Of a stretch of DNA of 64,000 nt, positions 9,480-37,896 are shown piece after piece (positions within the stretch are counted from its first letter, which is position 1; each line of letters opens with the position of its first letter). The notes beneath the pieces are model-generated. The model worked only from the letters and a program-made list of their open reading frames with translations, did not search any database and was not told where the DNA came from. The stretch covers positions 27,900,001 to 27,964,000 of the forward strand of contig OZ024753.1 of NCBI GenBank assembly GCA_964016885.1, in the 5' to 3' direction. Source of the DNA: Eledone cirrhosa (Eukaryota). The translations under genes were made by a program, and so were the position numbers.

Positions 9480-10180
9480 GTGATAGGGAAGAGGTTGGTA
9501 CTTGTCCACCTCATGCAATACAACATAGAGAGGGTAGGGTGTAAACCTGGCTTTGGTGGCGCTATGATCAATTTAGATCAATCAAAAGCTTTCGATAGGG
9601 TCGACCATCGATACCTGGAGGCTGTTCTCAAGGTAGCTGGCTTTGGTCCCAGTTTCAGAGGCTGGATCACTGCAATGCACAACAGCATCTGCTCAGAGAT
9701 CAAAGTAAATGGCCACCTTTTGGAACCATTTCAGATCACTTGATCAATCCATCAAGGGAGCCCTCTCTCCCTTCTTCTGTATGTATTGACTCACAAGCCT
9801 TTACTGCGGAAGCTAGAGCTGTTGCAGGGCATCCCGCTCAAATGAAGATGTGAAAAGGCTGCATTGGCATATGTGGACAACATCATCATGACGGTGTCAA
9901 ACACCTTGGAAATCAATGTGATTGGCACTTTCTTAGAGGAATATGAAAGGTTGACAGGAGCAAAATTAAATCCGGGAAAGTCGATGAATTTGCAGCTCAG
10001 CACCTTGAGTAGCAAATCCATGCCATTTGACAGCGTTGTTGGACACTGGATGGACAGACCAGTGAGGCTGCTCAGGATTTGGTTCAGTCCAGACCTCTAG
10101 GTAGATAAGAACTGGGACAAAGTAATGAGCAGATTGGCCACTCTCACCCAGAAATGGGCTGAGAGAAAGCTATTTGAGGT
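9480..10180 (+). pseudogene. Tx1/L1-clade reverse transcriptase fragment
   Basis: LDQSKAFDRVDHRYL..VL...GFGPSF..WI, QGSPLS.LLYVL and AYVDNI (YADD-like) motifs, interrupted by stops and frameshifts. Confidence 0.85.
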
Positions 10181-17529: not shown

Positions 17530-20500
17530 CATTCCAGATCTGTGTAGCAGTACTCTATGTGGTCCTATGTTGTCTGTTTATGTAGCAGCAGCTTGCATTA
17601 CCCCAGATATCTGAACAGTATTCTAATGTGGTCTAGAATGTTTACTGTGCATAGCAGAAGCAATGTCCCAAGTATGTGAGCAGCACTGTAGTGTTTGTGT
17701 CAGTAGTGTTTGTGTATGTAGCAGAAGCAATGTCTCAAATATGTGAACAGCTGAACAGATCTCTAATGTGATTTAAGATGTTTCTGTATGTAACAGCTCC
17801 ACTGTCCTAAGATGTTTGTGTTTAGCAGCAGCAACATACAAACATCTTATGTGGGCAGTGCTCTAATGTCTGCCTAGAATATTTGTATGGTTAACATCAG
17901 CAGTGTCCTGAATGTGTGAGTAGTACTGTAATGTGCTCTTAGATTTCTATGTATATGTAACAGCAGCACTGTTCTAGATGTGTGGATAGTACTGCAATGG
18001 GTCTAGAAGGTTTGTATGTGTAACAGCAGCACTATCCCAATACTGTGATGTTATCTAGGATGTTTGTATATATAATAGGGTCACTGTTCCAGTGCTGTAT
18101 TGGATCTAGGCTGTTTGTGTATGTAACAACATCTCTGTCCCAGTACTGTAATGGGTTTAGGATGTTTGTGAGTGTAACGGCAACACTGTCCCAGTACTGT
18201 AATGTATCTAGGGTGTTTGTGAGTGTAACGGCAACACTGTCCCAGTATTGTAATGTATCTAGGGTGTTTGTGAGTGTAACGGCAACACTGTCCCAGTACT
18301 GTAATGTATCTAGGATGTTTGTGAGTGTAACGGCAACACTGTCCCAGTACTGTAATGTATCTAGGGTGTTTGTGAGTGTAACGGCAACACTGTCCCAGTA
18401 CTGTAATGGGTCTAGGTTGTTTGTGAGTGTAACGGCAACACTGTCCCAGTACTGTAATGGGTCTAGGATGTTTGTGAGTGTAACGGCAACACTGTCCCAG
18501 TACTGTAATGTATCTAGGGTGTTTGTGAGTGTAACGGCAACACTGTCCCAGTACTGTAATGTATCTAGGATGTTTGTGAGTGTAACGGCAACACTGTCCC
18601 AGTACTGTAATGGGTCTAGGATGTTTGTGAGTGTAACGGCAACACTGTCCCAGTACTGTAATGGGTCTAGGATGTTTGTGAGTGTAACGGCAACACTGTC
18701 CCAGTACTGTAATGGGTTTAGGATGTTTGTGAGTGTAACGGCAACACTGTCCCAGTACTGTAATGGGTCTAGGATGTTTGTGAGTGTAACGGCAACACTG
18801 TCCCAGTACTGTAATGGGTCTAGGGTGTTTGTGAGTGTAACGGCAACACTGTCCCAGTACTGTAATGGGTCTAGGGTGTTTGTGAGTGTAACGGCAACAC
18901 TGTCCCAGTACTGTAATGGGTCTAGGATGTTTGTGAGTGTAACGGCAACACTGTCCCAGTACTGTAATGGGTCTAGGGTGTTTGTGAGTGTAACGGCAAC
19001 ACTGTCCCAGTACTGTAATGGGTCTAGGATGTTTGTGAGTGTAACGGCAACACTGTCCCAGTACTGTAATGGGTTTAGGATGTTTGTGAGTGTAACGGCA
19101 ACACTGTCCCAGTACTGTAATGTATCTAGGGTGTTTGTGAGTGTAACGGCAACACTGTCCCAGTACTGTAATGGGTCTAGGATGTTTGTGAGTGTAACGG
19201 CAACACTGTCCCAGTACTGTAATGGGTCTAGGATGTTTGTGAGTGTAACGACAACACTGTCCCAGTACTGTAATGGGTCTAGGATGTTTGTGAGTGTAAC
19301 GGCAACACTGTCCCAGTACTGTAATGGGTCTAGGATGTTTGTGAGTGTAACGGCAACACTGTCCCAGTACTGTAATGTATCTAGGATGTTTGTGAGTATA
19401 ACGGCAACACTGTCCCAGTACTGTAATGTATCTAGGATGTTTGTGAGTGTAACGGCAACACTGTCCCAGTACTGTAATGGGTCTAGGGTGTTTGTGAGTG
19501 TAACGGCAACACTGTCCCAGTACTGTAATGGGTCTAGGGTGTTTGTGAGTGTAACGGCAACACTGTCCCAGTACTGTAATGGGTCTAGGGTGTTTGTGAG
19601 TGTAACGGCAACACTGTCCCAGTACTGTAATGTATCTAGGGTGTTTGTGAGTGTAACGGCAACACTGTCCCAGTACTGTAATGTATCTAGGGTGTTTGTG
19701 AGTGTAACAGCAACACTGTCCCAGTACTGTAATGTATCTAGGGTGTTTGTGAGTGTAACGGCAACACTGTCCCAGTACTGTAATGGGTCTAGGGTGTTTG
19801 TGAGTGTAACGGCAACACTGTCCCAGTACTGTAATGGGTCTAGGGTGTTTGTGAGTGTAACGGCAACACTGTCCCAGTACTGTAATGGGTCTAGGGTGTT
19901 TGTGAGTGTAACGGCAACACTGTCCCAGTACTGTAATGTATCTAGGATGTTTGTGAGTGTAACGGCAACACTGTCCCAGTACTGTAATGTATCTAGGGTG
20001 TTTGTGAGTGTAACGGCAACACTGTCCCAGTACTGTAATGTATCTAGGGTGTTTGTGAGTGTAACGGCAACACTGTCCCAGTACTGTAATGTATCTAGGA
20101 TGTTTGTGAGTGTAACGGCAACACTGTCCCAGTACTGTAATGTATCTAGGGTGTTTGTGAGTGTAACGGCAACACTGTCCCAGTACTGTAATGGGTCTAG
20201 GGTGTTTGTGAGTGTAACGGCAACACTGTCCCAGTACTGTAATGTATCTAGGATGTTTGTGAGTGTAACGGCAACACTGTCCCAGTACTGTAATGTATCT
20301 AGGGTGTTTGTGAGTGTAACGGCAACACTGTCCCAGTACTGTAATGTATCTAGGGTGTTTGTGAGTGTAACGGCAACACTGTCCCAGTACTGTAATGTAT
20401 CTAGGATGTTTGTGAGTGTAACGGCAACACTGTCCCAGTACTGTAATGTATCTAGGGTGTTTGTGAGTGTAACGGCAACACTGTCCCAGTACTGTAATGG

Positions 20501-20680
20501 GTCTAGGATGTTTGTGAGTGTAACGGCAACACTGTCCCAGTACTGTAATGTATCTAGGGTGTTTGTGAGTGTAACGGCAACACTGTCCCAGTACTGTAAT
20601 GTATCTAGGATGTTTGTGTATGTATCAGTAGCACTGTTCTAGATAAGTAAACAATACTCAAATGTGGGTCTGGAATGTTT
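17530..20680. repeat. 51-bp satellite (~50 copies, core ~18150-20620) flanked by degenerate ~64-bp ancestral units
   Basis: Unit tctagg(a/g)tgtttgtgagtgtaacggcaacactgtcccagtactgtaatg(gg/ta). It gives the 17-aa periodicity of the 865-aa ORF. Confidence 0.97.
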
Positions 20681-26621: not shown

Positions 26622-26716
26622 GTATATATATATAATATATATATAAATATATGAATATATATATAATTCAAAATTCAATAAGACCAAGGATTAGTATTAT
26701 TATTATTATTTATTTA

Positions 26717-26891
26717 GGGCGGTGGATTGGCAGTATCGGTAGAGGGTCGGACGCCATGCTTTGCAGCAAAGAGTTACAGCCCTTTATGGTCTGAGTTCAA
26801 ATCCCACTGAGGTTAACTTTGCCTTTCATCCTTACGGGGTCGATAAAATAAAGTACCAGTAATTGCTGGCCTTGTGCCAACAAGTAGAAAA
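26717..26891 (+). mobile_element. SINE family A inserted into a solo arm of the 37337-37836 element family
   Basis: Full head and core. TSD is approximately ATTATTTATTTA. Flanks 26662-26716 and 26892-26960 join to match 37337-37430. Confidence 0.85.
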
Positions 26892-27034
26892 ATTATTTAT
26901 TTATACATCTACAGTCGTTTCAATGCAGCTAGAATATTTCATCAATTGTGGAGAAAAAAAAACTATAACTCTATAACCTCATATATTACTCTTTCCCTCT
27001 CTCTCTCTCTATATATATATATAGATAGATAGAG

Positions 27035-28340: not shown

Positions 28341-28440
28341 TATATTTGTTTGACTTCATGTTTTTCTTCATCATATTTAAACTGCAAACTTCATATTTTA
28401 TAGATGCCATCATTGTGTCTCTATTCATTTATTGTAACTT

Positions 28441-28466
28441 TATCTCTTTCTTTTCTTTTCTTACAG
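28441..28466 (+). promoter_or_regulatory. 3' splice acceptor (polypyrimidine tract plus CAG) of the Kv1 main exon
   Basis: tatctctttcttttcttttcttacag|G. The frame stays open from 28468 into the channel ORF, implying a phase-2 intron. Confidence 0.85.
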
Positions 28467-29898
28467 GTCTCTGGACTTAAAAAACCCGGATGAAGAGAAC
28501 AACCAGTTGGATGCTGGTAGTGGCTCTCTTCGAATGTACAAGCGGTCAGACCGTGTTATCATCAACGTAAGCGGGCTAAGGTTCGAAACACAAACACGAA
28601 CTCTTAGTCAGTTTCCGGATACGCTGTTAGGTAACCCTAAGAAGCGAAACCGCTATTACGACCCTTACCGCAATGAATATTTCTTTGACAGAAATCGTCC
28701 CAGTTTTGATGCCATCCTTTATTTCTACCACAGTGGTGGTCGACTACGAAGGCCTTCAAATGTACCATTGGATATATTCCTGGAGGAGATTAAGTTTTTC
28801 GAGCTCGGAGAAGAGGTCATTGAAAAATACCGTGCAGAAGAGGGATTTATCAAAGAAGAAGAAAAACCTCTTCCCGAGAACGAATTCCAGCGTCGTGTGT
28901 GGCTACTGGTTGAGCATCCAGAAAGTTCTACACCTGCTCGTGTAATCGCCATAATGTCTGTCAGCATTATTGTTATATCAATCGTTACGTTTTGCTTAGA
29001 AACCTTACCGGAATTCAAACGTTATGAACTTCTCAACGACACCATCATTGTAGATGATGCCATGCCAAAATTTGGCACACCATTTTTCATCATTGAAACC
29101 GGATGCATTATATGGTTTACTATGGAATTGTTAATACGTTTCGCTTCCTGTCCTGTAAAACTGGATTTCTTTAAGGACAGTATGAATGCTATAGATATTG
29201 TGTCGATTATACCTTACTTTATTACTTTAGGGACTGTCATTCAAAATGACACAAATAGTCAAGATAAGCAAAATATGTCATTGGCTATATTAAGGGTTAT
29301 CCGTCTTGTGAGAGTGTTTCGTATCTTTAAACTGTCACGTCATTCCAAAGGGCTTCAAATCCTTGGTCAAACTTTGAAGGCCAGTTTACGAGAGTTAGGT
29401 TTACTGATTTTCTTTCTTGTCATTGGCGTTGTATTGTTCTCCAGTGCAGTGTACTTTGCCGAAGTGGACACTGAAGATAGCCATTTCAAAAGCATTCCCG
29501 ATTCTTTTTGGTGGGCCGTCGTGACCATGACAACCGTCGGTTATGGTGACATGTCGCCAATAGGCGTGTACGGTAAGTTAGTCGGATCACTCTGTGCTAT
29601 TGCTGGAGTGTTGACTATTGCCCTGCCCGTCCCTGTCATTGTGTCAAATTTTAATTATTTCTACCACAGAGACACGGAATCTACTGACGACAAAGAAAGG
29701 TACCACCATGTGACGTCAGCGACGGGTTATTATGATGAAAAGATAAGTTCTTACACATCAGAAGTTGAGTCAGATATTATGGAAATAGATGAGGCAAGTA
29801 TGTACACGGAGAAATGGAAAGAAGGGCACATTAGTAATACGAACAATATAGGGTTTAATCACATCAAAAATAATCTAAGCATGCAGACCGATGTATGA
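28467..29898 (+). CDS. Kv1.1: Shaker-family (Kv1) voltage-gated potassium channel alpha subunit, main coding exon; probable orthologue of cephalopod delayed-rectifier Kv1.1
   Basis: T1 domain ([13 protein letters not shown]...[14 protein letters not shown]), S1-S3, S4 ([19 protein letters not shown]), pore TMTTVGYGD at 29524-29550, S6 PVP and C-terminal PDZ ligand QTDV. The ORF-track start at 28507 is TTG. The frame extends upstream as [15 protein letters not shown] to the acceptor. Confidence 0.98.
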
Positions 29899-36289: not shown

Positions 36290-37377
36290 AATAATATGAT
36301 TAAATGTAAATATATTAATAATAGTAAAAGTAATAATAATAATGGAAACAGTAATAATAATGGTTTCCAAGTTAGACACAAAGCCAACAGTTTGGGGGAA
36401 AAGGAAAGTCAGTTAAGTTGACCCTATTGTGTTTATTAGCACTTTATTTCATCGACCCCCCATAAAAATGAAAAGCAAAGCTAAACTTTTACTAATTATA
36501 TAATGATAATAGGCTAATAAGTAAGGTAAATATTTTCATGAGTAAGGACTAAATGTGGGCTAATAGTTGACATGCATAATTTTGTGCTGACTGGTGTGGA
36601 TATATAGTGAAAATATAGAGCATATAGATTATGAAAATTATACACACGCACATGTGCACACACACACACATGCACATTTACATATAGATACATATATATA
36701 TATGCAAACATATATACATATATACAAAAAGTGAGTATAAAGTTTGATTGTTCTTAGCTACGACATCTGCATATTCACCATACTATCCATTAGGATATAA
36801 TGTTGGGGTGTAATGTTTTATACAGTTTATGTTTACAAGCCGAAATTACCTCTGATTTTTTTGTTCAAAATACATTCATTGGCGTAAAGTATTTCCAGGG
36901 CTTCAGCAGTGCAAAGATCATAAGATCATTTATTTCCATTATAGGATCTAGCTTTAGCTAAGATCTCCCAACATAATCTATATCAGATGTTCTTTATTTT
37001 TAAACTCCAGATAAAGGCCGAAAGTGAAAAGCTATTCCTTCTTAAAGGATTTTGAAATTAATGAGAATGCATGTATAAGCGCTGCTTAAATCTATTGACT
37101 GTTACCCATATATAAGCCTTACTAGCAGTGTGTATATCAACCTTACACTTATAAACTGTATAGTTTGATAGGCATTTTACTGCTAGAAGGACAGTAGTAC
37201 CTATTGATACACTGTATCTGTATGTAGACCATTTTCTGTATGTATATATATATATGTATATATATGTATGTATATATATATATGTGTATATATATGTATG
37301 TATATGTATATATGTGTATATATATATATATATATTAAATTCAATAAGACCAAGGATTAATAATATTGTTATTTATT

Positions 37378-37504
37378 CATACATCTACGAACGTTTCAAT
37401 GCGACCAGATTATTTCATCAATAGTTGAGAAAAGACAGATATCATCAGTTAAGTAACTCTATTATAGATGCTTTACTCTAAGCCATATCTCTTCAGAAAA
37501 TATA
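37378..37504 (-). ncRNA. Type I hammerhead ribozyme-like motif (opposite arm)
   Basis: Minus strand reads tatatttt-CTGAAGA-gatatggc...gtcgcatt-GAAAC-gttc-GTA-gatgtatg. Confidence 0.55.
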
Positions 37505-37670
37505 TTAAAAATAACAACTTGTTTAGAATCATAAGACAAATTATCAAGAATTATATAAGATTCATAGTGCAAAAGCAGATGTATAAGCTTGTGAAACATA
37601 CTTATTTGGACATGCAAGAGATAAAGAGTTATGTGTGTTTTTCATAAATATGTTAAAATACATTTTTATC

Positions 37671-37796
37671 ATATTTCCTGAAGAGATATGGCTTAGAGTA
37701 AAGCATCTATAATGGAGTTACTTAACTTATGATATCTGTCTTTTTTCAACTATTGATGAAATAATCTGGTCGCATTGAAACGTTCGTAGGTGTGTA
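37671..37796 (+). ncRNA. Type I hammerhead ribozyme-like motif
   Basis: CTGAAGA at 37678-37684, stem II GATATGGC/GTCGCATT, GAAAC at 37777-37781, stem III AC(GTTC)GT, GUA triplet at 37786-37788, and a wobble-rich stem I. Confidence 0.55.
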
Positions 37797-37839
37797 AATA
37801 GATAATATTATTAATCCTAGGTCTTACTGAATTTTGAAT

Positions 37840-37896
<57 letters not shown>

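Follow-up and report, generated by a model that had tools for sequence, protein, structure and literature searches.

Comparison with known elements

The closest described relatives of the element discussed here are Penelope-like elements (PLEs) of the Hydra clade, among them Hydra-1_Obim of Octopus bimaculoides. According to Craig et al. (2021, PMC8557442), this clade has a C-terminal GIY-YIG domain, a CxCX5C linker, a DKT motif, and an RWK-like N-terminus, lacks the CCHH motif, and targets (TA)n. The family that we describe resembles these PLEs in its C-terminal GIY-YIG domain, its CxCX5C linker, and its lack of CCHH (with candidate RWK-like and DKT positions), in its (TA)n targeting, and in carrying a hammerhead near the 3' end, and also in that insertions include an inverted and 5'-truncated copy with a tail at one end (PMC8557442). 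Head-to-head inverted arms are a described PLE arrangement (PMC8557442, PMC3846280), and earlier work on PLEs noted hammerheads that are paired on opposite strands at distances of 100-700 bp (Cervera and de la Pena 2014, PMC4209133). The locus in our window (the whole stretch of 64,000 nucleotides that was analysed) looks to us like an ordinary dead PLE insertion, and its pair of hammerheads, which face outward, is what PLE insertions normally show.

There are also differences. Most Hydra elements in the literature measure less than 3 kb, whereas here the non-coding part is 1.5-2.2 kb (in the window family) or ~4 kb (in a younger family), and published tails are 30-40 nt, as compared to ~100-135 nt here (PMC8557442). 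In the published Hydra hammerheads, loop 2 is at most 10 nt, while here A9 and G12 are separated by 92 or 116 nt; the published hammerheads are, like ours, variable at pair 10.1-11.1 (PMC8557442, File S2). The minimal hammerheads of PLEs are a good match in other ways: they are type I, with a weak and near-palindromic stem III, a proximal helix II of 7-8 bp, and opposite-strand pairs. However, they have G-C where the window has G10.1.U11.1, and the window's helix II is longer by ~76 nt (PMC4209133). In literature searches on this form and on octopus PLEs, we found no description of PLE hammerheads with helix II extensions of 76-100 nt; Repbase, Dfam, or subscription papers may already contain such families. 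The core search of Craig et al. allowed 7-17 nt between the halves of the core, and they list half-cores at 35-50 nt in Naiads and one plant PLE-X table entry with a loop of ~35 nt (PMC8557442). Three short diagnostic motifs of the window family are absent from the supplement of that study (PMC8557442), and a 2026 annotation of octopus repeats mentions neither hammerheads nor Hydra elements in its main text (PMC13282606).

Two other systems are worth comparing. In the Poseidon element PAc of Anolis, there are two starts for reverse transcription (RT), which give tailed and tail-less ends, and the ends do not lie at the ribozyme site (Frangieh et al. 2024, PMC11167929); the ends in our family are similar. 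Unlike our family, PAc belongs to another clade and has a short hammerhead that overlaps the start of its ORF (PMC11167929); the hammerheads in the window are predicted from sequence. Non-LTR retrozymes are also ORF-less DNA with type I hammerheads and are related to PLEs, but they are made of head-to-tail tandem monomers, whereas the window has a single head-to-head fragment of what appears to be an autonomous element (PMC7229834; bioRxiv 10.64898/2026.07.22.740005).

Two PLE 3' ends, head to head

The initial annotation described an element of ~500 bp with inverted arms of ~175 bp between TA-rich repeats, and this description is accurate. The arms are 92% identical without gaps (37361-37512 and 37662-37813) and with small gaps they reach ~37337 and 37838. 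As RNA, the 500-nt element folds into a hairpin of -263.6 kcal/mol (z -26). The long arm (37337..37664, sense on the minus strand) is the final 328 nt of the 3' non-coding region of a PLE and finishes at a short (tail-less) 3' end; the short arm (37662..37838, plus strand) is an inverted copy of the final ~177 nt of the same 3' end. Comparison with family copies places the head-to-head junction at 37662..37664, where a 3-nt overlap (ATT) is compatible with both arms. Neither arm has a tail; since most inverted pairs are tailed at one end, the window copy is atypical in this respect. On the left is a (TA)n/(TATG)n target tract (37237..37336) and on the right is a (TA)n(TG)n tract (37839..37895); no target-site duplication was discernible around the element.

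A nearby fragment needs to be kept apart from the element. At 36857..37198 on the minus strand is a broken C-terminal GIY-YIG fragment, with stops in all three frames, which matches the ORF of locus L113 (tblastn E 1.8e-12) and belongs to a different Hydra-type PLE family. We considered it as a part of the element and rejected this: its nucleotide relatives are at L081 and L217 and are not the ORF copies of the window family. The fragment abuts the left TA tract, and L081 has the same two families as neighbours in the same orientation. There is also a second small head-to-head fragment of the window family at 26665-26990, 1.4 kb upstream of a potassium channel (Kv) ORF; its minus strand carries the 3' half of the hammerhead, which a different repeat interrupts, and its plus strand carries the tail end. 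Finally, a 359-nt contig is ~90% like both sides of the junction (37527-37736), with 114 extra letters between them, and is probably a paralogous copy. More widely, contigs from two unlabelled runs span the element piecemeal, and two putative RNA runs gave no match to it; neither result speaks for or against expression.

Hammerhead layouts in the arms

Each arm was said to contain a complete type I hammerhead layout, and we found every named part in its place. In the short arm, the layout spans 37670..37796 (+), with 92 nt between A9 and G12. The 5' strand of stem I (37670-77) is followed by CUGAAGA (37678-84), by the strands of helix II (37685-92 and 37769-76; 7 of the 8 proximal positions are paired, with 76 nt between the strands), by GAAA (37777-80), by a stem III of AC(GUUC)GU, and by a GUA that ends at 37788. 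The layout in the long arm spans 37378..37504 (-), with CUGAAGA from 37496 and a GUA that ends at 37386. These motif positions agree with the cuts that had been predicted, after 37788 (+) and after 37386 (-). A relaxed hammerhead descriptor, which we composed after the motif was seen, matches only these two arms within the 64-kb window, as compared to a mean of 0.18 matches in 40 locally shuffled windows and to none in 5000 shuffles of the arm.

On the other hand, the window copies are poor examples of a hammerhead. An Rfam search, which had been suggested along with the annotation, gave no hammerhead in the window region or in an arm alone. Stem I is weak, with one U.U mismatch and several G.U pairs, and pair 10.1-11.1 is G.U. 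Single arms fold no better than shuffles (z 0.45 and 0.96), in helix II they do worse than shuffled sequence (z +1.3 and +1.0), and the hammerhead fold lies 10-15 kcal/mol above the minimum free energy (MFE). The window arms rank among the poorly folding copies of the family. Also, three of the six changes that are private to the right arm are sense-strand A>G changes within 12 nt (37790-37801), and these weaken stem I; they are too few to interpret.

The rest of the family gives a clearer view. A two-part core pattern has 42 exact matches in the 3.0-Gb genome of the same species, including the two window arms, and the control has none. (The genome-wide pattern matches are skewed towards the reverse strand, with 4 vs 13 and 10 vs 32, possibly as an artefact of the search.) We collected 96 arm rows, of which 64 are distinct and 56 complete, and we tested conservation in a set of 44 copies that omits the two window arms, 4 rows that were selected by the pattern, 2 near-duplicates, and 4 junction rows. 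In these, conservation was 0.943 in the core and 0.857 in the non-CpG flank (p = 5e-4), and in 16 copies that were found by their upstream sequence only, it was 0.952 vs 0.837 (p = 8e-4). Columns with a minor letter in at least 5 of the 44 copies number 0 of 12 in the core and 38 of 114 elsewhere (p = 0.01). All of these p-values overstate independence, because the copies are related. The layout has the type I core of CUGANGA, GAAA, and UH with stems I-III, and a 12-nt core is fully intact in 22 of the 44 copies. The cut site, which the pattern did not select for, is UA in 24 of 26 and UC in 1 of 26 among the core-pattern loci listed, and loop III is variable. In older subfamilies there are two extra letters after the cut site, and a longer stem I is possible.

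The evidence from the stems is mixed. Averaged across 63 copies, the helix II domain is more stable than its shuffles (mean z -1.03). The stems are paired in 78.7% of cells vs 28-48% in slid controls, with no excess over shuffles. RNAalifold gave no consensus structure for 63 copies (our alignment A1 holds 63 of 67 references). The covariation score of 0.191 was reached by 38 of 500 shuffles, and the other four measures were at the level of shuffles. In short, a genome-wide comparison of the arm and a check for stem covariation had been proposed, and the first shows a core that is kept above its flanks while the second is not significant.

The family and its ORF

Against the 3.0-Gb genome, the element has 368 candidate copies, of which 40 were scored. 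The best of these match positions 1-328, the long arm, at ~72-83% and extend both ways, which includes copies that continue upstream of 37664. Among the 40 scored, just one other (L013) spans 1-500, and its arm lengths are different; other copies match a single arm. We walked upstream from the hammerhead copies in three rounds and found 1.5-2.2 kb of AT-rich non-coding sequence, which starts at the C-terminus of a GIY-YIG domain on the hammerhead strand. The distance is 2,218 nt where it is seen directly, in L109+L110, or ~1.5 kb as estimated from overlapping copies. C-terminal GIY-YIG code lies on the hammerhead strand in L109/L110, L112, L108, and L143. Furthermore, L152 has remnants of the reverse transcriptase and endonuclease (EN), then the UTR of the window family, and is head-to-head with the window family's tail, while L140 has a full-length broken ORF, from the N-terminus on, that is head-to-head with a hammerhead arm. 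Because other copies extend into RT/GIY-YIG coding sequence, the window copy is best seen not as a 500-bp family but as what remains of the 3' terminus of an autonomous Hydra-clade PLE, which inserted in the usual inverted, head-to-head form with both arms strongly shortened.

The ORFs that we can tie to the window family (L152, L140, L109, and L143) are all broken, none is inside the window copy, and we found no intact ORF of the family. They do retain motifs of the clade: CNCRNSDAC (CxCX5C) in L152, and RRLKW along with a decayed DKT position in L140. The EN lacks CCHH in L152, L113, and L253. The window copy is inserted in (TA)n and family ends lie on TA repeats. A length under 3 kb and a canonical hammerhead are general, non-defining traits of the clade, and the family has instead a long non-coding region and a long helix II. 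Placing it by its motifs alone, we think that the window family is likely an autonomous Hydra-clade PLE.

The ORF in L113 was rejected as the parent of the window element: it belongs to a younger family that is nested in an old copy. Twenty loci came up in a genome search with the Pfam GIY-YIG model, none of them clearly linked to the window family, and Pfam had no family for a related frame of 714 amino acids. At L115 (G000:C2:90635501-90645500), there are long open frames upstream of a family copy. These resemble the endonuclease and RT of what we take to be an L1/Tx1-type LINE.

The 3' ends of the family are of two main kinds. Of 39 ends, 21 are short and on TA repeats, 14 are tailed, and 4 are other. 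The ends lie ~55 nt past the hammerhead site or ~100 nt further, and never at the cut site. Head-to-head inverted arms are common, and their lengths and junctions vary by locus.

These observations bear on two other views of the element. The initial annotation correctly recognised a PLE, its type I hammerheads, the inverted ends, and the targeting of TA, but it took the element for a non-autonomous, ORF-less PLE or a retrozyme-like unit. This would fit the lack of an ORF within the element, its two hammerhead layouts, and the frequency of short inverted copies in the family. However, other copies match just 1-328, extend on both sides, and lead upstream to the family's own RT/GIY-YIG ORF, and arm lengths and junctions differ between loci. 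Head-to-tail tandem monomers with hammerheads, which define non-LTR retrozymes (PMC7229834), are absent at the window locus and in the family loci that we examined. We consider a self-propagating unit of this kind to be very improbable. Long terminal inverted repeats in TA could also indicate a MITE or a foldback DNA transposon, with hammerhead-like words by chance, but most copies are one-armed and differ in their 5' ends, the ORF linked to the family encodes RT/GIY-YIG, and the motif is far above chance. We did not find copies of uniform length with both terminal inverted repeats and a cognate transposase. This reading of the ends is almost certainly wrong.

A younger relative with a long helix II

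Nested in one old copy is a young and recently amplified Hydra-type family with an open frame of 830 codons and a tandem unit of 6,559 bp (L253, at G000:C2:281131501-281141500; also L113/L152). It carries RWR, DKT, YRDD, CxCX5C, CxxC, and CxH, and its best copies are 98-99% identical: 150 of 150 scored matches to the EN are at 99-100%, and of 1096 candidates for the 3' end, the top 40 are at 98-100%. The 3' regions of the young and old families cannot be aligned. Its inverted pairs have one tailed (~135 nt) and one tail-less end. Also, a partial tandem that forms direct pLTRs is seen in the young relative and was not found for the window family among the loci examined.

The young family has a predicted hammerhead ~3.6 kb after the stop codon and, in the tandem unit, ~350 nt upstream of the next ATG (L152 859-1008, plus strand). 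It consists of CUGAAGA, a rod of 116 nt (z -5.5), GAAA, AC(GAUC)GU, GUU, and a perfect stem I of 8 bp, and its fold is just 1.2 kcal/mol above the MFE. Rfam gave no hammerhead match in the young family, while a control with a short helix, in L144, was found by Rfam (HH9, E 1.3e-6). The young relative is the strongest support for the predicted long-helix hammerhead. A predicted type I hammerhead with a long helix II is new, and we see it in the window family (92 nt) and, intact, in the young family (116 nt).

Other descriptor matches in loci with PLE ORFs have core halves that lie 12, 14, 20, 35, 36, 50, and 53 nt apart; these families are uncurated. Several of these further layouts, with core spacings of 12-53 nt, form outward-facing pairs (L144 at 8538, at 9582, and on the opposite strand; L145 at 7461; L154 at 3469; L139 at 9879; L142 at 7892). 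We tentatively suggest, and would not be surprised to be wrong, that PLEs in this genome carry type I hammerheads with a helix II rod of 35-116 nt that is invisible to Rfam and to published descriptors, and that the rod is a selected functional domain, such as a double-stranded RNA handle for the PLE protein, for ADAR, or for Dicer that would gate cleavage. If the long-helix form does cleave, then surveys with short limits on loop length undercount PLE ribozymes, and claims that some clades lack them need to be rechecked. Some PLEs that were reported to be without a hammerhead, or to have a half-core, may bear the long-helix form. Because the young family has an intact ORF, a predicted long-helix ribozyme that folds well, and many fresh inverted insertions with private variants in common, it makes the role of PLE hammerheads testable, and also the templating of the inverted arm, including whether both arms come from one template molecule.

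How the locus arose

Very probably, the 500 bp hold two head-to-head copies of the extreme 3' end of an autonomous PLE with Hydra motifs, which sit between TA repeats and likely stem from one source copy in one insertion; the hammerhead layouts would be inherited cargo that is likely inactive now. The two arms are closest to each other: they are 92.1% alike, whereas none of 48 other copies exceeds 87.5%. They differ at 11 of 139 columns and have 12 non-majority letters in common.

Could the likeness of the arms be due to a later event? The short arm might have arisen, or been homogenised, after a PLE insertion, by DNA fold-back duplication or by gene conversion. Both arms terminate at the tail-less end; when up to 1 mismatch is allowed, a diagnostic 26-mer has no match in the 3-Gb genome outside these arms; the common changes include CpG-type C>T and letters that break helices; and in most other old pairs the arms are 76-87% alike. 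But the young family again offers a comparison. There, rare variants are common to both arms in 5 of 7 simple inverted pairs (in three of these, 5 variants each), as compared to 16 of 454 non-partner pairs, 12 of which involve two poorly aligned rows; the 4 comparisons inside young tandem arrays had no rare variants in common. This implies that one source per insertion is the norm, and since young insertions already share private variants between their arms, the sharing in the window needs no later event. Also, other PLE junctions have short overlaps like the one seen here. So we think that an event after insertion is unlikely, although it is the most serious competitor to a single insertion.

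Under a single insertion from one source, we imagine the following. The GIY-YIG nuclease of the element would nick the (TA)n tract, and reverse transcription would start ~55 nt past the hammerhead site, with one cDNA that stops after 328 nt and a second, outward-facing arm that stops after ~177 nt. The two 5' ends would then join via the 3-nt overlap. The ends of the insertion would not be defined by the hammerhead. The hammerhead of the parent element likely served to process tandem transcripts at a site a few hundred nt before the next ORF (in the young relative, ~350 nt before it), and it probably did so as a dimer through stem III or with the help of a protein. At the window locus, RNA from read-through would form a duplex of ~175 bp and no ribozyme.

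Function at the locus

The last of these steps can be considered more closely. It had been suggested that self-cleavage would compete with a long duplex. The duplex does form in our folds, but the competition is one-sided: forcing the hammerhead fold in the full transcript costs 172 (+) or 160 (-) kcal/mol relative to the duplex. Furthermore, read-through transcription of either strand would produce the antisense arm before the hammerhead arm. Given this order, and with the duplex favoured by ~160-170 kcal/mol, cleavage at the window locus is unlikely. Both hammerheads in the window are likely dead, and we would expect a duplex without cleavage.

A channel ORF was noted ~7.5 kb upstream, and there is indeed an uninterrupted ORF for a Shaker-type Kv subunit (28438-29898, plus strand; BTB_2 and Ion_trans), which ends 7.4 kb upstream of the element. 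Could the hairpin have been exapted in the 3' UTR of this gene, where it would recruit ADAR or regulate the transcript? It lies in the same region as the Kv gene, and a duplex of ~175 bp with 92% identity would be a good ADAR substrate if it were transcribed. However, between the stop codon and the element, 7.4 kb away, are 8 AATAAA hexamers, and we found no meaningful complementarity between the element and the Kv ORF; the only matches were short, AT-rich chance matches to the interval between them, and none was in the ORF. So the suggested link to editing of the channel is unsupported. The arms have also drifted apart, at 11 of 139 columns. Clusters of A-to-G changes had been proposed as a check, and there is no excess of A>G, as an ADAR footprint, among the copies of the old family. 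(An apparent excess in the young family was dropped, as it was largely from misaligned flanks of truncated copies.) We view an exapted hairpin as quite improbable. Elsewhere in the window, at 18024-20642, is a tandem array of 2.6 kb with a unit of ~36 bp, in which long frames are open on both strands.
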